This document shows, in pieces, positions 12,222 through 26,929 of a DNA stretch of 30,498 nucleotides (position 1 is its first letter; each line of letters opens with the position of its first letter). Origin of the DNA: Candidatus Parcubacteria bacterium (GTDB lineage: Bacteria > Patescibacteriota > Minisyncoccia > Phycocordibacterales > CAIZLB01); the NCBI GenBank assembly GCA_046049705.1, contig JBJOQZ010000037.1, positions 1 to 30,498 on the forward strand, read 5' to 3'. The position numbers were made by a program, and so were the translations under genes. The notes below the pieces were generated by a model. It was not told the DNA's origin. It saw nothing but the letters and a program-made list of their open reading frames with translations, and made no database searches.

Positions 12222-12638
12222 ATGCCAACATTAAATCAATTAGTACGAAAAAACCGATCAAAAACTGCCCGAAAAAGTAAGGCGGTAGCTTTGACTCGTG
12301 GATTCAACCACTTGCTCAACCGACCGGTGTATTATAACTCTCCATTCAAACGAGGTGTATGTACAAAAGTAACAACTAAGACTCCAAAGAAGCCAAACTC
12401 AGCGATTCGAAAGATTGCCCGAGTTCGACTTACAAATGGTATGGAAGTTACTGCCTACATCCCTGGTATGGGACATAACCTCCAAGAGCACTCAGTGGTA
12501 CTTTTGCGAGGTGGACGAGTAAAAGACGTAGGTCTTCGATACACTATCGTTCGAGGTAAACTCGACTGTGCAGGTGTAGATAAGCGACGAAAACAACGGT
12601 CTGCATACGGTGCAAAGCGCCCTAAAGCAGCAAAATAA
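12222..12638 (+). CDS. rpsL: 30S ribosomal protein S12
   Basis: [39 protein letters not shown]. Confidence 0.98.
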
Positions 12639-15942: not shown

Positions 15943-15980
15943 AAGCACACGACTTTTTCTCAAAGTCGGTGCTTTTATTT
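15943..15980 (+). terminator. Hairpin plus T-tract upstream of fusA (terminator or leader structure)
   Basis: AAGCAC-A-CGACTTT-TTCTC-AAAGTCG-GTGCTT followed by TTATTT. Confidence 0.55.
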
Positions 15981-16019
15981 AGAAATTTAGAATTTTTTAA
16001 CCATAATTTAATCAAATTT

Positions 16020-18176
16020 ATGAATCGAGATTATCCACTAGAGCGAGTACGAAACTTCGGTATCATCGCTCACATCGACGCAGGTAAGACAACTACATCA
16101 GAACGTGTACTTTACTATACAGGTATGAGTCACAAGATTGGTGAAGTTCACGAAGGTGAGGCCGTAACCGACTGGATGGAACAGGAAAAAGAGCGTGGTA
16201 TTACTATTACTGCCGCTGCAATCACTTGTTTCTGGAACCCTACATATATGGGGGCAGATGTTTCTAAAAAGCACCGATTCAATATTATCGATACACCAGG
16301 TCACGTAGACTTTACCGTAGAAGTAGAACGATCACTCAAGGTTCTCGATGGTGGAGTGGTGGTATTCGACGGAGTGGCCGGAGTAGAGCCACAGTCTGAA
16401 ACTGTATGGCGACAAGCGGACAAGTACCATGTACCTCGAATTTGTTTCATCAATAAGCTTGACCGTATGGGTGCTTCATTTGAGCGATCATATGCATCTA
16501 TCCTCGACCGACTAAACAAAAGCGCCATCCGAATGCAACTTCCAATCGGAGCAGAGGCAGATTTCGAAGGTGTAGTAGACCTTGTAAAGATGAAGGCGTA
16601 CCGATTTGAAGGTGAGATGGGCAGCCAGGTTATTGAAGGAGAAATCCCTGAAAACATGAAAGCTGATGCAGAAAAGTATCGAGCTGAACTTATCGAAAAG
16701 GCTTGTGAATTCAATGAAGATATGATGAATGCATACCTTGAAGGTAAAACTGATTTTACAGTAGATGAAATCAAGGCAGCTATGCGAAAGGGTGTAATTG
16801 CAAACAAAGTATTCCCAGTATTTACTGGTACGGCTCTTAAAAATAAGGGTGTGCAGTTGATTCTCGATGCTGTAGTTGATTATCTTCCATGTCCTACCGA
16901 TGTACCTGCAGTAAAGGGTGTAAATCCAGATACAGGTGAGGAGATTGAACGATCTGCTTCAGACTCTGAACCGTTTGCTGCTCTTGCATTTAAACTCCAA
17001 AACGATCCATTCGTAGGTCAACTTACATTCTTCCGAGTATATTCAGGTACAGTTGAAGCAGGTTCATATCTCTACAACTCAACAACTGGTCAAAAAGAAC
17101 GACTTGGACGAATTGTGCGACTTCAGGCAAATAAGCGAGAAGAAGTAAAGAAAGTATATGCCGGAGAAATTGCAGCAGCTGTAGGCTTGAAAGATGCAAA
17201 GACTTCACATACATTCTGTGATGAAGCTAATCCAATCATCCTTGATCCAATTAAGTTTGCAGAGCCGGTAGTATCACTCAAAATCGAGCCAAAGACTAAG
17301 GCTGATCAGGAAAAGATGGGTATTGCACTTAAGAAATTGATGGATGAAGACCCTACATTCCGAGTATCTTCAAACACTGAAACTGGAGAAACTATTATCT
17401 CTGGTATGGGTGAGCTCCACCTCGAAATCATGGTTGATCGTATGAAGCGAGAATTTAGCGTGGAAGCAAATGTTGGTAAGCCTCAGGTAGCCTACCGAGA
17501 AACTATCCAAGGTTCTGCTGAAGCTGAGTACAAGTACATTAAACAATCTGGAGGTAAGGGTCAATACGGTCACGTAAAGATCACTATCAAGCCGCTTGAA
17601 AAACTTGAAGAAGGAGCAAAAATTCCTAAAAACGTTCACCGAGAAGAAGGGTTTGAATTCATCGACTCTATCAAGGGTGGTGTTATTCCAGTTGAATTTA
17701 TCCCAGCGGTAGAAAAGGGTGTTAAGGAAGCTATGGATCGAGGTATCGTAGCAGGATTCACGCTTACAAACGTATCTTGTGAACTTACATTCGGTTCATA
17801 CCACGATGTAGACTCATCTGAAATCGCATATAAAATTGCAGGTTCTCAGGCATTCCAAGATGCTGCGAAGCGAGCTCGACCTGTTATCCTTGAGCCAATT
17901 ATGAAAGTAGAATGTGTAATGCCAGAACAATTCATGGGTGACGTTACAGGTTCACTCTCTGGAAAGCGAGGTCAAATCGAAGGTATGGAAGAACGAGGAC
18001 AAGGTCTTCGAGTTATCCGAGCCATGGTTCCACTTTCTGAAATGTTCGGTTATACAACTGATATTCGATCTATGACACAAGGACGAGGTTCAATGACTAT
18101 GGAATTTGATCACTACGACGTGGTGCCACCAAACGTTGAGAAGACGATTGTAGAATCACGAAAGGTGACTGCGTAG
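16020..18176 (+). CDS. fusA: Elongation factor G
   Basis: [51 protein letters not shown]. Start at MNRDYP 16020. Confidence 0.98.
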
Positions 18177-18626: not shown

Positions 18627-19820
18627 ATGGCTGAAGCATTTGATCGCTCAAAACCCCATGTAAACGTAGGTACTATTGGTCACGTTGACCACGGTAAGAC
18701 AACTCTTACTGCGGCAATTCTTAACACTCTTCACCGAGCAGGTATGCAGGTGACTCTTAAGGGTGTAAATGAAATCGACAAGGCTCCTGAAGAAAAAGCT
18801 CGAGGTATTACTATCTCACTTTCTCACTCAGAGTACTCTACTGCAAACCGACACTACGCTCACATCGATGCGCCAGGTCACGCCGACTACATCAAAAACA
18901 TGATTACTGGTGCCGCTCAAATGGACGGTGCTATCCTCGTGGTAGCCGCTACTGACGGTGCGATGCCTCAAACACGAGAGCACGTACTTCTTGCTAAGCA
19001 AGTAGGTGTACCTAAGATCATCGTATTCCTAAACAAATGCGATATGGTTGATGATGCTGACATGATCGACCTCGTTGAAGCTGAAATCCGAGAACTTCTT
19101 TCAAAGAACGGATTTGATGGCGACAATGCACCTGTAATCCGAGGTTCTGCGCTCAAGGCTCTTGAAGCGACTGGAACAGACGATGAATGGTCTAAGAAGA
19201 TTCTTGACCTTGCAGAAGCACTTGATACATACATCCCAGTACCAGAACGAGAAACTGATAAACCTTTCCTTATGCCTATTGAAGACATCTTCTCTATCGA
19301 AGGACGAGGTACAGTAGTAACTGGTAAAATCGAAAAGGGTGTTGTTAAAGTGGGAGAAACTATTGAAATCGTCGGTCTTAAGGATACTGCTTCAACTGCA
19401 GTAACTGGAATCGAAATGTTCAATAAGCAACTCAATGAAGGTATGGCTGGAGACAACGCTGGTATCCTTCTCCGAGGTGTTAAAAAAGAAGATCTTACTC
19501 GAGGTCAAGTTATCTGTAAGCCAGGCTCAGTAAAGCCTCATACAGATTTCGAAGCCGAAGTATATATCTTGAAGAAAGAAGAAGGAGGTCGACATACACC
19601 ATTCTTTACAGGGTACAAACCACAGTTCTACGTCCGAACAACTGACGTAACTGGTGAAGTATCACTTGCTGAAGGTGTAGAAATGGTAATGCCTGGTGAT
19701 ACAGTTACATTCAAGGTAAAACTTGTTGCCCCTGTTGCTCTTGAAGACAAACAAAAGTTTGCGATTCGAGAAGGTGGTAAAACTGTAGGTGCCGGTGTTG
19801 TTACCAAGATTGTCGCGTAA
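18627..19820 (+). CDS. tuf: Elongation factor Tu
   Basis: [38 protein letters not shown]. Confidence 0.99.
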
Positions 19821-21933: not shown

Positions 21934-22776
21934 ATGAAACGATATAAACCAACAACTCCGTCTCGTCGAAATATGTCTCATGTTTCTTTGCGAAGCATGA
22001 TTACAACCGACACACCACATAAACCTTTGACAAAAGGTGGACACCGATCTGTAGGACGAAACAATACAGGTCGAATCACAACGCGTCATAAGGGGTCAGG
22101 GCATAAGCGAGTATATCGACTTGTCGATTTCAAGATGGACAAGAAAGAGATTCCTGCAAAAATCCTTACTGTGGAATATGATCCAAACCGAACAGGTTTC
22201 ATTGCCCTTGTGGGCTATGCCGATGGAGAAAAACGATATGTTCTTCTTCCAAAATCAGTTCGAGTTGGAGATAAAATTATCACTGCTCAAAAAGCAGAGG
22301 TAAAAGCTGGTAACCGACTTCCACTCCGAAACGTTCCTGTAGGTACATTTATCTACAATATCGAATTACGACCAGAAGGAGGTGCCAAACTTGTACGAGC
22401 TGCCGGATCTTTCGCTGAAGTGATCGGTCAAGACTCTGGGTATACTCAGATCAAGATGCCATCAACTGAAGTACGAAAAATTATTGATACTGCATGGGCA
22501 ACTGTCGGTGAAGTATCAAATGATGAAAACCGTCTTCAAAACTTTGGTAAAGCTGGACGAAGCCGATGGAAGGGTATTCGACCTACAGTTCGTGGTACTG
22601 CCATGAACCCAGTAGATCACCCACACGGAGGTGGTGAAGGCCGACAAGGACGAGGACGACGACGCGCTGTATCTATCTACGGTAAACCAACCGGAAAAGG
22701 ACAGAAGTCTCGAACTCCAAAGAAATACTCAAACAAGTTCATCGTATCTCGCCGACGAGTCGGAAAGAATCGATAA
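21934..22776 (+). CDS. rplB: 50S ribosomal protein L2
   Basis: GRNNTGRIT, EYDPNR, GKAGRSRW, VRGTAMNPVDHPHGGGEG. Confidence 0.98.
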   Translation: MKRYKPTTPSRRNMSHVSLRSMITTDTPHKPLTKGGHRSVGRNNTGRITTRHKGSGHKRVYRLVDFKMDKKEIPAKILTVEYDPNRTGFIALVGYADGEKRYVLLPKSVRVGDKIITAQKAEVKAGNRLPLRNVPVGTFIYNIELRPEGGAKLVRAAGSFAEVIGQDSGYTQIKMPSTEVRKIIDTAWATVGEVSNDENRLQNFGKAGRSRWKGIRPTVRGTAMNPVDHPHGGGEGRQGRGRRRAVSIYGKPTGKGQKSRTPKKYSNKFIVSRRRVGKNR

Positions 22777-23048: not shown

Positions 23049-23954
23049 ATGAATTTATTTTCAAAATTAGCTTCACTCACAATCGCTTTCGCCCTTATCT
23101 TTGGCGCTAGTTTAGGAGTAAATGCTAAAACTGCATCAGCAGTAGTCATTATAGCTGAGAACACAGCTGAAATGTGTACAGATGGTATCGACAATGACGG
23201 TGACTTCGTTACTGACTTGTCAGATACAGATTGCGTATCTTTTGCTCCAGCACCTGTTATGGGTGAATTAGGTGTAGAAAATACACTTGCACTCTGTACA
23301 GACGGTATCGACAATGACTTTGACTTCGTCACTGACTTGTCCGACACAAACTGTGCAGCTTTTGCCCCGGCCCCTGTTCTACCTGCTGAAAATACTGCAG
23401 AAAAGTGTACAGACGGTATCGACAATGACGGTGACTTCGTTACTGACTTGTCAGATACAGATTGTGCCGCTTTCGCACCAGCACCAGTAGTACCTACTAC
23501 TCCTACGACTCCATCAACACCTGCTATTACTCCTGGTTCACAAACTGGAGTGAGTGGTACAACTGGCGGTGGATTTAGCGGATCAACAGGTCTACCTACT
23601 GGTCAATCAGTATTAGGTGCTACAACTGGTCCTGCTACAGGTGCAAGTTGTAAGACTGTGATCACAAAGTACATGAAACTTGGTGATCGAAACACTGAAG
23701 TATCTAAACTTCAAGTTGCTCTCAATTCATTGATGGGTAAGAAACTTGCGATTACTGGAGTATACGATCAGGCTACATTTAATGCAGTCGTTGAATTCCA
23801 GAAAGCGCATTCTAAGTTAGTACTTAAGCCATGGGTAGATGCAGGTCTGATGAATACTGAAATCGCCACTGGATATGCGTACATTACTACAATCCACACA
23901 ATCAATAGCATGCTTTGTGGTGGTAACTACGGTCCACTTCCAGCACTAAAATAA
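23049..23954 (+). CDS. Secreted protein with three Asp/Cys metal-binding-like repeats and a C-terminal peptidoglycan-binding-like domain
   Basis: Signal peptide; CTDGIDNDGDFVTDLSDTDC x3; Pro/Thr/Gly linker; LGDRNTEVSKLQVALN...ITGVYDQATFNAVVEFQ (PG_binding_1-like). Confidence 0.75.
   Translation: MNLFSKLASLTIAFALIFGASLGVNAKTASAVVIIAENTAEMCTDGIDNDGDFVTDLSDTDCVSFAPAPVMGELGVENTLALCTDGIDNDFDFVTDLSDTNCAAFAPAPVLPAENTAEKCTDGIDNDGDFVTDLSDTDCAAFAPAPVVPTTPTTPSTPAITPGSQTGVSGTTGGGFSGSTGLPTGQSVLGATTGPATGASCKTVITKYMKLGDRNTEVSKLQVALNSLMGKKLAITGVYDQATFNAVVEFQKAHSKLVLKPWVDAGLMNTEIATGYAYITTIHTINSMLCGGNYGPLPALK
23175..23465 (+). repeat. Three intragenic direct repeats (60-nt cores at 23175, 23295, 23406)
   Basis: Cores 1 and 3 differ at only 2 of 60 nt, both synonymous. 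Periods are 120 and 111 nt. Confidence 0.9.
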
Positions 23955-23973
23955 TCTGAGTGTAGGGAATACC

Positions 23974-24007
23974 ACAAAAAGAGCCTCATACATGAGGCTC
24001 TTTTTGT
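23974..24007. terminator. Bidirectional intrinsic terminator
   Basis: ACAAAAAGAGCCTCA-TACA-TGAGGCTCTTTTTGT, perfect 15 bp. Confidence 0.88.
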
Positions 24008-24050
24008 TATATGTAAAAGCGGAGCCAAGGTTGGGGAGGTTACGATACTA

Positions 24051-24079
24051 TTGACTTTATATACTTTATGTGATAGACT
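24051..24079 (+). promoter_or_regulatory. Promoter for the GC-rich gene
   Basis: TTGACT-17-TAGACT with TGn extension. Confidence 0.6.
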
Positions 24080-24195
24080 TATGGTAGTCCGTTCTTTGAT
24101 ACCCATGTCTGCCACTTGGGTGGAAGATTATGTATAAAGGACGGCAGTCTCAGAAAAAAACTACGTTCCATGGCGGTAAAACCGCCATCCAGTAC

Positions 24196-25221
24196 ATGAA
24201 ATCAAAATCCACCCTTGCGGCCCTCATCGCCGCGACTCTCGCGCTCGTCTTGACGGGCTTTGCCGTGGCGCAGAATGCGCCGTACTACGATGTCTTGGGA
24301 GAAATCTCGACTTCGGATGTTACCAAAGTGTCCATGTCCGATTCAGACCCCTGGACAATGGAACTGCCTGTTCCACCAACTGAAGCGGCGACATTGTCCG
24401 GTTTCAATACCGGGTTTTATGTCAATGCTAGCGTCAATGAGCGTGGGGTCATTCTTGACTCCATGCGCATGACCCAGTGTACGTTCAGTCTATATCACCT
24501 TGATGTCCTCACAGGAGCAGAGACTCCTGTTTTGCGTCCAGGTGGTACAGTTACTGATATCCCAATCTCACTGTACACCAACGAATTCGTGACACCGCAA
24601 GGTGCTCATACTAGGCCTTCGGTGTTCACTACTGGGACGCTGGACTTCACGGGTAACTACAATAGCGTTGCAAATACGCCGGCTGTAGGAACCATAGTAT
24701 CAAACGTGGCTCGTCTCTGGATGACCAAACAACTGTTCACTTGGAACAATGTTCCGGATTTCACACGTCCGACCTTGAACCAAGGATACGTCGTGCGCTG
24801 GACCGTTAGGTTCGTGCCGGTCTACCAAGGGGTGCAATACCCTGAGGTGACGCTGAATCCTACATTCCGGTACAAGGTGATTGATATCCCTTTGCCAGAG
24901 TTTGTCAGCATCAGACAGTATGATGAAGGCGAAGGACATTCCAAAGGGAACGTCCTTCGGATGTCTGGCTCTTACCTTGAGTTCTTTGAGCTTCAGCGCT
25001 CGCCGGACTTGGTAAACTGGACACCATTCTCATCACAGGGTGAAGGGGCAAACTGGGTCGGGCCCAATACATATTCATTTGGTGGAGGTCTGATTGGACC
25101 AAACATCTTTGAATGGGTGATCCCGAGCACAATGACTAATGCTTTGCCACGCGAGTTCTATCGCATGGTGTGGACAGGTCGGCGGGGAAGCTGGAGACCC
25201 CAGTTTCCAGTGGCATCCTAA
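24196..25221 (+). CDS. Secreted hypothetical protein, GC-rich, with an LQRSxDLVNW...FYR C-terminal motif
   Basis: Signal peptide MKSKSTLAALIAATLALVLTGFAVA-Q. The ORF is open from 24130; 24196 is preferred as start. Confidence 0.75.
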   Translation: MKSKSTLAALIAATLALVLTGFAVAQNAPYYDVLGEISTSDVTKVSMSDSDPWTMELPVPPTEAATLSGFNTGFYVNASVNERGVILDSMRMTQCTFSLYHLDVLTGAETPVLRPGGTVTDIPISLYTNEFVTPQGAHTRPSVFTTGTLDFTGNYNSVANTPAVGTIVSNVARLWMTKQLFTWNNVPDFTRPTLNQGYVVRWTVRFVPVYQGVQYPEVTLNPTFRYKVIDIPLPEFVSIRQYDEGEGHSKGNVLRMSGSYLEFFELQRSPDLVNWTPFSSQGEGANWVGPNTYSFGGGLIGPNIFEWVIPSTMTNALPREFYRMVWTGRRGSWRPQFPVAS

Positions 25222-25242
25222 GAGGTCTGGCCAACCTCATCG

Positions 25243-25276
25243 AACCCCCTTCTGCGGCAGCGCAGTAGGGGGTTTT
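25243..25276 (+). terminator. Intrinsic terminator
   Basis: AACCCCCT-T-CTGCG-GCAG-CGCAG-T-AGGGGGTT followed by TT. Confidence 0.75.
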
Positions 25277-25357
25277 CTACTACCTCAAATCTGCAAACAA
25301 AGGTATAGGGACCAGTGTGCAAGAACATGATTAATCCCCACCCTCATCTCCAAATCT

Positions 25358-25392: not shown

Positions 25393-26484
25393 ATGGTAAA
25401 ATTACTTGAAACAAGTAAAAATACTCTAAAAACATCCCTTTACAAGGCCAAATCTTGGGCAAAATATGCTCTAAAACATGCTTTGGTCTCAGGTGAACAT
25501 AATGGTCATAAGCCAGCTGTACTTAAACTCGAAGCAAGCTTTGCGATTATAGTCTTTTTTAGCCTCTCAATCTTTGGGATTAAACAAATTTCGACATTTG
25601 CATTATCCAAGCAATCATTTTTAAGTGAGGTGTATCCTGCTGTAGTAGCAACCCTTACCAATAATGGCCGACAAGCCATAAACGCGCAAAAACTTAAGCC
25701 ATTGGCCTATAATCCAGTATTAGAGGCTGCTGCGCTTAAAAAAGCCGATGATATGATTGCAAAGGGGTACTTTGCACATAATAGCCCTGACGGAAAACAG
25801 CCATGGGATTGGATTAGGGAAGAGGGTTACGAATATGTCTATGCGGGTGAAAACCTAGCTATAAACTTCGCAGATTCAATCGATGTATATCAGGCGTGGA
25901 TGAATTCACCTGGTCATAGGGCAAATATCCTTAATCAACACTATACTGAAGTCGGGATCGGGGCACGAAAAACCTATGTAGATGGCCGTGAAAGTATCAT
26001 AGTCGTCCAAATGTTTGGATCTCCTACAAAAGGGTATATCACAAAAAGAAATCAGGCTAACGATACGCTTTTAAGCCAAAAAAATCAGGTTTCCACTACC
26101 TCTAGTTCAACAATACTGACTCTCATTGTTGGCGCTACGACATCTACATCAACCGTAATTACAACAAATACTACAACCACTACTTCAACATCTATAAATC
26201 TTGCTGTTCTTGGTGCAAGTACTGATAGTGAAGAGTTTCAAACAGAAGATATCCATACAACAACAGCGTTTGTTGGTGGCATTGCTACAAATCCCAAATT
26301 AATTGGTCTGATACTTTACATTTTCTTCGTGATAATCATAAATATCGCCGTTATTGGCATCGGGCGAACCGAATATCACCATAATCATAAAAAGTCTATA
26401 TTTATAGCCGTAGTATTGCTTTCGGTCCTTTCACTTATTTCTGTATATTTCTTCGCTATTTCTCCAGAAGTACTTCTTGTATAG
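25393..26484 (+). CDS. Membrane-bound CAP (SCP/Tpx-1/Ag5/PR-1) domain protein
   Basis: LEAAALKKADDM...YFAHNSP, YAGENLA, AWMNSPGHRANIL...YTEVGIG; N-terminal TM, Thr-rich linker and two C-terminal TMs. Confidence 0.92.
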   Translation: MVKLLETSKNTLKTSLYKAKSWAKYALKHALVSGEHNGHKPAVLKLEASFAIIVFFSLSIFGIKQISTFALSKQSFLSEVYPAVVATLTNNGRQAINAQKLKPLAYNPVLEAAALKKADDMIAKGYFAHNSPDGKQPWDWIREEGYEYVYAGENLAINFADSIDVYQAWMNSPGHRANILNQHYTEVGIGARKTYVDGRESIIVVQMFGSPTKGYITKRNQANDTLLSQKNQVSTTSSSTILTLIVGATTSTSTVITTNTTTTTSTSINLAVLGASTDSEEFQTEDIHTTTAFVGGIATNPKLIGLILYIFFVIIINIAVIGIGRTEYHHNHKKSIFIAVVLLSVLSLISVYFFAISPEVLLV

Positions 26485-26584: not shown

Positions 26585-26929
26585 ATGGCACGATCACTCA
26601 AAAAAGGTCCACTCGTAATCGAAAGATTACTCAAAAAAATCGAAGGCAAAAAACCATCTGAAACTGGTGTTATTAAGACATGGTATAGAGCATGTCATAT
26701 CTCTCCTGAGATGGTGGGCTTTATCTTTGGTGTCTACAACGGTAAAACGCATGTAGAAGTACTTGTTACAGAAGAGATGGTAGGTCACCGACTTGGTGAA
26801 TTTTCACCTACTCGAAAGTTTAATAGACACGGAGGTAAGATGCAGAAAGAGCTCGACGCTGCTAAAAAGCAAGCTGAAATTACAGCTGCTAAATCAGCCA
26901 AAGCTGCAACTACTCCAACTAAAAAATAA
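26585..26929 (+). CDS. rpsS: 30S ribosomal protein S19
   Basis: [27 protein letters not shown]. Confidence 0.97.

Follow-up and report, generated by a model that had tools for sequence, protein, structure and literature searches.

How did a GC-rich gene for an exported protein, ending in a motif reminiscent of secreted Verrucomicrobiota proteins, come to lie among the ribosomal-protein genes of an AT-rich member of the Candidate Phyla Radiation (CPR)? The question is raised by positions 24196 to 25221 of contig JBJOQZ010000037.1 (GenBank assembly GCA_046049705.1), a stretch of 30,498 nucleotides, here called the window, from Candidatus Parcubacteria bacterium (Patescibacteriota; Minisyncoccia; Phycocordibacterales; CAIZLB01). 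An earlier reading of the letters (the original prediction) had proposed that an epibiotic CPR cell acquired this gene, whose product we call P0001, from a host of the Planctomycetes–Verrucomicrobia–Chlamydiae (PVC) type. Here, we describe P0001 as a member of a new, CPR-specific protein family that bears a diverged variant of an uncatalogued C-terminal domain, the FYR-tail. The gene is real, constrained and expressed-looking, and we lean towards regarding its product as a functional two-module exported protein, which arose from an old, domain-level acquisition of PVC type followed by evolution of the family within the CPR.

The FYR-tail and the family that carries it

The open reading frame (ORF) of P0001 lies on the forward strand and encodes 341 amino acids before a TAA stop. 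A longer frame would begin at an ATG at 24130, but at locus L191 the orthologous sequence has an indel of 5 nt that interrupts it, and the start is therefore placed at 24196. The protein opens with MKSK, a hydrophobic stretch and a cut between AVA and Q, with an AlphaFold2 helix at residues 5–23; a cleavable signal peptide had been predicted, and it can be read from the residues themselves and recurs in all relatives. Within the protein, constraint is weakest here (dN/dS, the ratio of non-synonymous to synonymous divergence, 0.44–0.73). AlphaFold2, run on the family alignment, returned an all-beta model (mean predicted local distance difference test (pLDDT) 84, predicted template-modelling score 0.81). 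Its residues 27–230 form an elaborated immunoglobulin (Ig)-like sandwich; among solved structures, those closest to it are pilin and adhesin domains of Gram-positive bacteria, at Z 6.1–6.5, a range called common. Foldseek hits in the PDB were all generic antibody Ig domains, and the ESM Atlas held no usable neighbour of this N-terminal module. Further strands lie within residues 251–326, and a separate model of this tail domain (pLDDT 73) resembles Ig and FN3 domains at Z 4.6–4.8. At the sequence level P0001 matches nothing in Pfam, NCBIfam (E ≤ 1) or the PDB. It has no transmembrane segment, lipobox, LPXTG motif, PEP-CTERM signal or hydrophobic C-terminal helix, and the mature protein is therefore expected to be released or held non-covalently.

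The last domain carries the motif. Its first block, LQRSPDLVNW (24991–25020), occupies residues 266–275, three of which (L266, S269 and W275) do not vary among family members, and FYR (25156–25164) follows at residues 321–323, 46 amino acids beyond W275. To define what such tails usually look like, metagenome contigs were scanned for DNA encoding LQxSxDLxxW. Of the 80 loci obtained, about 20 had [FY][YF]R 25–30 amino acids past the first block and a stop within 3–8 amino acids of it, the stop lying 35–46 amino acids on from that block, so that the PVC pattern named in the original prediction is real; we refer to these as canonical tails. P0001 keeps the motif and not the spacing, and 18 conserved residues, rather than an early stop, follow its FYR. 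Most canonical tails end a long open frame, on contigs of 52–67% GC, and their carriers include a sulfatase, an M64 peptidase, and Calx-beta, DUF11, LamG/Ig/PA14 and FG-GAP/ASPIC proteins; among the carriers examined, those that are complete start with signal-peptide-like N-termini. The tail region lies outside every Pfam and NCBIfam model. The motif belongs to a real, uncatalogued domain, found at the end of numerous secreted proteins in GC-rich organisms of Verrucomicrobiota type. The original suggestion of a PVC-type domain, with sorting or anchoring as candidate functions, stands.

The P0001 tail joins this group as a diverged variant. A profile of the family C-terminus (A2) aligned in hhalign to an alignment of 13 canonical tails (A5) at 97.6%, with an E-value of 2.9e-12; the 58 aligned columns take in strands that precede the motif. 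Searched in the other direction, the A5 profile matches members of the P0001 family in the window genome (G000, 1e-4; 9.7e-5 at the P0001 tail), in two other genomes of the same genus (G001, 3e-6 and 1e-4; G004, 5e-6) and in G020 (2e-7), with low scores for the P0001 tails (22–31 bits). By ESM Atlas features, residues 250–341 lie at 0.92 to unannotated clusters, with Verrucomicrobiota the commonest phylum among the top-ranked ones shown; none of the 100 nearest clusters has a Pfam family, and 8 of 10 shape neighbours are Verrucomicrobiota.

Within Patescibacteria the domain is nearly restricted to the relatives of the window genome. Among 300 other Patescibacteria genomes the canonical profile found two matches at E ≤ 1e-3, neither of them terminal. 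Within the genus (G000 and the other genomes G001–G004), further canonical tails, of the form LQxSxD..W...F[FA]R, end proteins whose N-terminal parts are unrelated to P0001: two GC-rich secreted proteins in G003 (L204:499-1719 and L197:1447-2589), with G+C at third codon positions (GC3) of 0.69 and 0.70, about 0.15–0.2 above the native GC3 of that genome, and one in G001 (L206:691-1749; GC3 0.62, adjacent gene 0.39). The window genome itself has a second FYR-type tail, again on an unrelated, signal-peptide-bearing protein (contig C61:17795-18685; GC3 0.52; E 7e-4 to the family profile). The near-restriction of the domain, within Patescibacteria, to this genus and family speaks for a cross-phylum origin of the tail. 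One tail-like stretch occurs both at the end of contig C61 (18500-18673) and at the start of contig C49 (17-190), which is probably an assembly break in or beside a repeated tail-bearing gene.

Relatives of the whole protein are few. A word-indexed search of 5.8e9 proteins found 10, and an exhaustive phmmer search of 1.84e9 representative proteins gave 15 matches, three of which (P0020, P0023 and P0024) were rejected as repeat proteins matched by chance; after all searches the full-length homologues number about 20. Each of those on a contig long enough to judge is surrounded by small-genome housekeeping genes, as on a CPR-type contig, and the exhaustive search found no full-length or N-terminal relative outside such contigs. 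A locus search with a narrower alignment likewise returned only CPR metagenome-assembled genomes (Candidatus Paceibacterota and Saccharibacteria). The homologue search that the original prediction called for thus gave a divided answer: the C-terminal domain, about 85 amino acids long, is linked to PVC-type tails, whereas the whole protein has no relative beyond CPR-type contigs. Members of the family occur in three of the four other genomes of the genus (G003 has none), in 4 of 36 genomes in the taxonomic family and in 0 of 24 other families of the order. They sit at differing loci, twice adjoining smpB; G001 has three paralogues that are scattered over the family tree, and a sequence from a second genus (g2) is nested among those of the first (g1). 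A distant, longer member, P0018 (474 amino acids, with an extra C-terminal region; L017:8692-9867), adjoins a CAP-domain gene (L017:10001-11425) in a genomic context unlike that of the window.

Composition, selection and the age of the insertion

The window genome (660 kb in 78 contigs, 82% complete) has 39.6% GC, and its sequence was found in freshwater metagenomes, with no RNA dataset among the sequencing runs containing it. P0001 stands out as atypical, as had been claimed: its gene has a GC content of 0.51 and a GC3 of 0.56 against a genome mean of 0.315 (standard deviation 0.067; 522 long ORFs), which is a z of 3.6 and rank 6 of 522, and its synonymous-codon usage score is the 8th lowest of the same 522. 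The GC-rich block, about 24140–25330, covers the gene. The reported arginine usage was matched exactly, with CGA in none of the 17 arginine codons of P0001 against 13/14 in tuf and 14/17 in rpsL; rplB has 27/33. Genome-wide, CGA makes up 30% of arginine codons, for which 0/17 has a probability of 0.002. The translation genes of the window (12222-12638, 15969-18176, 18627-19820 and 21934-22776) show an unusually strong single-codon bias of their own, with CGA at 80–93% of arginine codons against that 30%. TGA serves as the stop of 45 of the 522 long ORFs (table 11).

High GC3 is, however, not peculiar to this copy. Every P0001 homologue has a GC3 of 0.44–0.73, against 0.25–0.40 in neighbouring genes, and the member at L002 (0.53) lies near its neighbours (0.39–0.53). 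Two loci, L001 and L191, hold syntenic orthologues with 94% and 74% protein identity to the window, and the GC3 values of the trio (window, L001, L191) are 0.56, 0.59 and 0.55. In all three the gene sits in the row of ribosomal-protein genes, sharing the gap between rplB and rpsS with two resident genes, for the secreted protein P0002 and the membrane-anchored CAP/YkwD protein P0003, and the five-gene order is the same. The P0002 and P0003 homologues of G001 are adjacent, separated by a 149-nt spacer with the same kind of terminator, so the window carries about 1.3 kb extra between them. P0001 is missing from this site in G001, G002, G003 and G004 and present in three diverged lineages with saturated synonymous divergence (dS); the insertion predates the split of the three sampled lineages.

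That three diverged lineages hold the gene at one site also means that it is not an assembly chimera. In run X1 a 2,758-nt Logan contig covers 23435–26192 with no differences and at a depth equal to the flanks, and in run X4, from an independent study, contigs of a strain about 92% identical bridge both junctions, so the chimeric assembly raised as a concern by the original prediction was not borne out. Runs X2 and X3 have no contig cover over 24294–25319, and an X3 contig turns to unlike sequence after 24290. The flanks of the insertion show no direct repeats, integration scars or mobility genes, and no integrase or tRNA was seen.

The gene has been kept by purifying selection, as its dN/dS of 0.11, on short and long branches alike, indicates; the N-terminal module is the most constrained part (Table 1) and the tail stands at 0.20–0.30. 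Ribosomal proteins of the trio are 94–98% identical (dS 0.34–0.49). Between window and L191, amino-acid identity is 74% for P0001 (dS 1.70), 75% for P0002 (dS 1.55) and 64% for the CAP protein (dS saturated). At four-fold degenerate sites of P0001 the third bases of window and L191 agree in only 40% of cases, with a strong/weak phi of 0.16 (confidence interval −0.01 to 0.33), and G+C is nevertheless 53% in both copies, against 14–29% in two neighbour genes. Simple neutral decay towards the composition of the neighbours would need an ancestral four-fold G+C (GC4) of about 0.9–1.1 at the point estimate, or 0.72–0.81 at the upper phi limit, and the simplest reading of the raised GC3 is therefore that it is maintained. 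Substitutions on the two short branches, polarised with L191 as outgroup, comprise 17 from strong to weak and 15 from weak to strong bases in P0001, and 18 and 45 in the AT-rich flanks, which points to parsimony bias. Divergence between window and L001 is a mosaic (dS 0.02 for CAP, 0.15 for P0002 and 0.27 for P0001), which suggests recent recombination or a sweep in part of the cassette. We infer that GC3 may be maintained by codon-usage or mRNA selection, or by GC-biased gene conversion at a recombining surface-antigen gene. GC-biased gene conversion in bacteria is itself a hypothesis in the literature. Because a raised GC3 characterises all members of the family and is stable among them, composition alone can neither date nor prove a transfer.

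Features of the locus

Coordinates of the gene's parts and surroundings are collected in Table 1.

Table 1. Features of the P0001 gene and of the rplB–rpsS gap in the window
Feature	Coordinates	Strand	Evidence
rplB, left anchor of the rplB–rpsS gap	21934..22776	+	ORF; 95–99% identical in L001 and L191
P0002, resident secreted protein: acidic double-disulfide repeats and PG_binding_1	23049..23954	+	NF033662 78 bits; PF01471 26.8 bits
P0002 terminator, left edge of insertion	23969..24012	+	inverted repeat; −24.2 kcal/mol, z = −7.2
Promoter-like site TTGACT-17-TAGACT	24051..24079	+	9/12 match, upstream TG; conserved in L191
Structured conserved 5' leader	24086..24195	+	alignment of window, L001 and L191; fold z = −3.3
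Sec-type signal peptide, residues 1–25, cut after AVA	24196..24270	+	read from sequence; conserved in family alignment
N-terminal beta-sandwich module, residues 27–249	24274..24942	+	AlphaFold2 pLDDT mostly >90; dN/dS 0.04–0.07; CPR-family-specific
C-terminal FN3/Ig-like domain, residues 250–331, divergent FYR-tail	24943..25188	+	profile match, Atlas features, fold
Variable insert between tail motif blocks	25028..25153	+	W-to-FYR spacing 46 aa vs ~25 aa canonical; replaced in X4 strain
Conserved basic extension after FYR, MVWTG[RK][RK]G.W[RK]...	25165..25218	+	family alignment
Terminator hairpin of the P0001 gene	25243..25274	+	−25.2 kcal/mol, z = −5.1, then UUUUCU
P0003, resident membrane-anchored CAP/YkwD protein	25393..26484	+	PF00188 66 bits
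rpsS, right anchor of the gap	26585..26929	+	ORF

The promoter and terminator that the original prediction had assigned to the gene both held up. Promoter-like matches in the region are not more numerous than in shuffled sequence, yet the site upstream of P0001 is conserved in L191, where a hairpin of other sequence also occupies the position equivalent to the terminator. Between promoter and start codon lies the leader, most columns of which are invariant in window, L001 and L191 while only 40% of the coding four-fold sites are identical; it matches no Rfam family and is a candidate cis-regulatory RNA. Like the promoter, the leader is conserved, rich in A+T and of native appearance. Immediately before the start codon, and without a Shine-Dalgarno sequence, the leader forms a GGCGG-UAAAA-CCGCC hairpin. 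The upstream regions of the paralogues share no alignable leader, only CA-rich tracts: in L008, L011, L006 and L021, C/A-rich, G-poor tracts (e.g. ACAACAACACAACCACAACAACAAACC) lie 30–40 nt 5' of the start codons, where they occupy the position expected for a Shine-Dalgarno sequence. Within the tail, the variable insert is exchanged for 136 other letters in the X4 strain.

The neighbours of P0001 are older, resident surface-protein genes. P0002 has a GC3 of 0.28, and its homologue directly adjoins the CAP gene in G001, where the intergenic region also contains the hairpin equivalent to the P0002 terminator; in P0003 the CAP/YkwD domain is placed between membrane anchors, and the CAP gene adjoins rpsS in G001, G002 and G004. 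A predicted complex of this CAP domain (residues 70–215) with mature P0001 scored 0.15, against a mark of 0.32. Across the taxonomic family the length of the rplB–rpsS interval lies between 65 bp and more than 1.5 kb. In G002, G003 and G004 it contains lipoprotein-like genes (lipobox L-[ST]-[AS]-C), CAP-domain genes are found in the gap too, and within the genus this is a hot spot where the genes for exported proteins vary. One of these, in G003 (L055:3654-4349), encodes a 232-amino-acid protein with a GC3 of 0.61 and a PEP-CTERM match (TIGR02595, 23.1 bits; cut-off 16), and exosortase (PF09721) was not found in the five genomes of the genus. Over the whole window genome, at least 24 ORFs have a GC3 of 0.47 or more (including C21:7412-8059, C32:2654-3349, C6:1470-2492, C59:387-1529, C39:1985-2716 and C61:17795-18685), and signal-like N-termini, assigned by a crude rule, are enriched among them (11/24 vs 114/476; P = 0.03). 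The ORF on C21 resembles a DNRLRE domain at 30.5 bits, below the cut-off of 34.

Origin and meaning of the family

The history that we favour would run as follows. A member of the CPR lineage would once have taken up a tail-bearing gene, or the tail alone, from a PVC-type donor, after which the P0001 family would have diversified, duplicated and moved within the CPR, with GC-rich codon usage a standing property of the family and not the residue of a recent transfer. The claim of acquisition from a PVC-type lineage is therefore supported for the tail domain, by its profile match and its near-confinement to the genus and family, and is not supported for the whole gene, given relatives found in the CPR only, syntenic orthologues and saturated dS. 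Several observations weigh against this history. The data searched hold no donor homologue of the N-terminal module, so that transfer of a whole gene and independent origin followed by capture of a domain are inseparable. The canonical tails of A5 were selected by their motifs, and the hhalign score is thus not fully independent; the A2 tail profile, run at the longer lengths against the set of 5.8e9 proteins with E allowed up to 10, matched nothing outside the P0001 family; and the label 'Verrucomicrobiota' comes from ESM Atlas summaries, not from a tree of the tails. At the upper phi limit, moreover, an ancestral GC4 of 0.72–0.81 could have come from a GC-rich donor, its composition since ameliorated.

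A credible, if unlikely, alternative is that the family is native to the CPR, its tail resembling canonical ones through convergence or very old FN3 ancestry and its composition due to gene-specific selection or GC-biased gene conversion in an often-recombining surface-antigen gene. The CPR-only homologues, the GC3 that stays stationary over saturated synonymous divergence and the mosaic dS along the cassette, which hints at recombination, would all suit such a history, as would the finding that P0001 evolves as fast as its native surface neighbours; these fast-evolving neighbours are not GC-rich, though, and convergence has to account for two motif blocks in order with upstream strands that align to canonical tails, and for a canonical profile that independently selects the P0001 family. 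The search of 300 other Patescibacteria genomes yielded effectively no such tail, and yet it occurs on several unrelated GC-rich exported proteins of the genus, a pattern that import explains better than ancient inheritance does. Import could also have come from within the phylum, with the family circulating in Patescibacteria on an unrecognised mobile element or from GC-richer relatives and each AT-rich genome holding a fairly recent copy. This we consider doubtful. Ribosomal genes of G003, in the same genus, do reach a GC3 of 0.46–0.58, the L002 gene blends with its neighbours, and the differing loci (twice beside smpB), the scattered G001 paralogues and the nested g2 sequence speak for movement; most horizontal gene transfer (HGT) into Patescibacteria is indeed within the phylum (PMC12455944). 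G003, however, lacks the family and its tail genes still exceed its own native GC3; no integrase, repeats or tRNA mark the insertion, and the synteny of the three orthologues speaks for vertical descent here.

The original prediction in its full form, in which the whole gene was recently acquired from a Verrucomicrobiota or other PVC host of the epibiont and keeps an un-ameliorated GC-rich composition, appears improbable. It accounts well for the gap in GC3 between gene and genome (0.56 vs 0.32), the lack of CGA, the gene's own promoter and terminator and the PVC-type tail; the PEP-CTERM protein of G003, in a genome where no exosortase was found, shows that genes of Gram-negative exported type enter the genus, and HGT into Patescibacteria is common, with occasional PVC partners and with transfer from Omnitrophota documented (PMC12455944). 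It does not account for a protein without a full-length or N-terminal homologue outside CPR contigs among 1.84e9 representatives, for syntenic orthologues in three lineages at a dS of 1.7 with GC3 unchanged, for a raised GC3 common to all of the roughly 20 family members in varied genomes and loci, or for a tail that is a diverged variant and not a near copy of the canonical form, in a gene whose flanks are free of repeats and mobility genes. The chance that a GC-richer fragment was joined to a CPR contig by assembly or binning is negligible: the GC step at both gene ends is sharp, but the same arrangement recurs in two other assemblies, the X1 contig runs through without differences at flank depth, X4 bridges both junctions, and the promoter and leader inside the extra segment are of native, AT-rich type.

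Several known systems can be compared with P0001. Its tail shares with canonical FYR-tails the order of LQxSxDLxxW and [FY][YF]R, the beta-sandwich, the place as last domain of a Sec-exported protein, the profile match and the attachment to unrelated cargo within one genus; it differs in its variable insert of about 20 amino acids (46 vs ~25), its 18-residue basic extension and its score of only 22–31 bits. Its cargo module, unlike canonical cargo, is not known outside the CPR, and P0001 is encoded in a Patescibacteria genome, that is, by a cell without an outer membrane. The C-terminal domain of the type IX secretion system (T9SS; Por_Secre_tail, PF18962/TIGR04183) in Bacteroidota, to our knowledge the only well-studied folded C-terminal address tag, is likewise a small Ig-like beta-sandwich ending diverse secreted cargo, but it has no sequence match to P0001 or to canonical tails at E ≤ 1, and the T9SS requires an outer membrane. 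Substrates of the PEP-CTERM/exosortase system (TIGR02595) do not match P0001 either, in contrast to the G003 protein in the same gap. FN3/Ig-like E-set domains of adhesins and pilins (CppA 5xcb, BcpA 3kpt, RrgB 2x9z) share the all-beta sandwich fold class, at Z-scores in the common range, whereas P0001 has no LPXTG, isopeptide signature or sequence similarity to them. With acquired genes and islands of Patescibacteria (Gios et al. 2025, PMC12455944), P0001 has in common its unusual composition and scattered occurrence, its organisation as a self-contained transcription unit and a product that is exported and could mediate contact with a host; it differs in lacking a whole-gene donor homologue and in a composition that is stably atypical over a diverged family.

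Export, location and binding of P0001 we infer from its sequence: it is predicted to be a surface or released binding protein, attached non-covalently, at the cell–cell interface, where the tail with its variable loop would touch a partner, either on a host cell or on the envelope of the CPR cell itself. A bolder version, which we rate as quite unlikely, holds that the genus lives on Verrucomicrobiota-type hosts and captured the 'address' domain of a host exoprotein, so that its tail proteins, P0001 included, would dock onto the envelope of the host at the site that its own FYR-tail proteins normally occupy, the insert would tune host range and the GC-rich codons would be actively maintained.

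The family carries a caution, that atypical composition need not mean recent transfer, and it offers a natural case in which amelioration, codon-usage selection and biased gene conversion can be separated. It also shows an abundant, uncatalogued end-domain of Verrucomicrobia in a type of cell that lacks an outer membrane, which constrains ideas on the function of that domain. The hosts and attachment molecules of most environmental CPR bacteria are not known, and a surface domain of host-phylum type confined to one CPR genus is a lead to both. If docking on the host were true, the tail would mark the host of an uncultured CPR lineage and give a first handle on the ligand of the FYR-tail.

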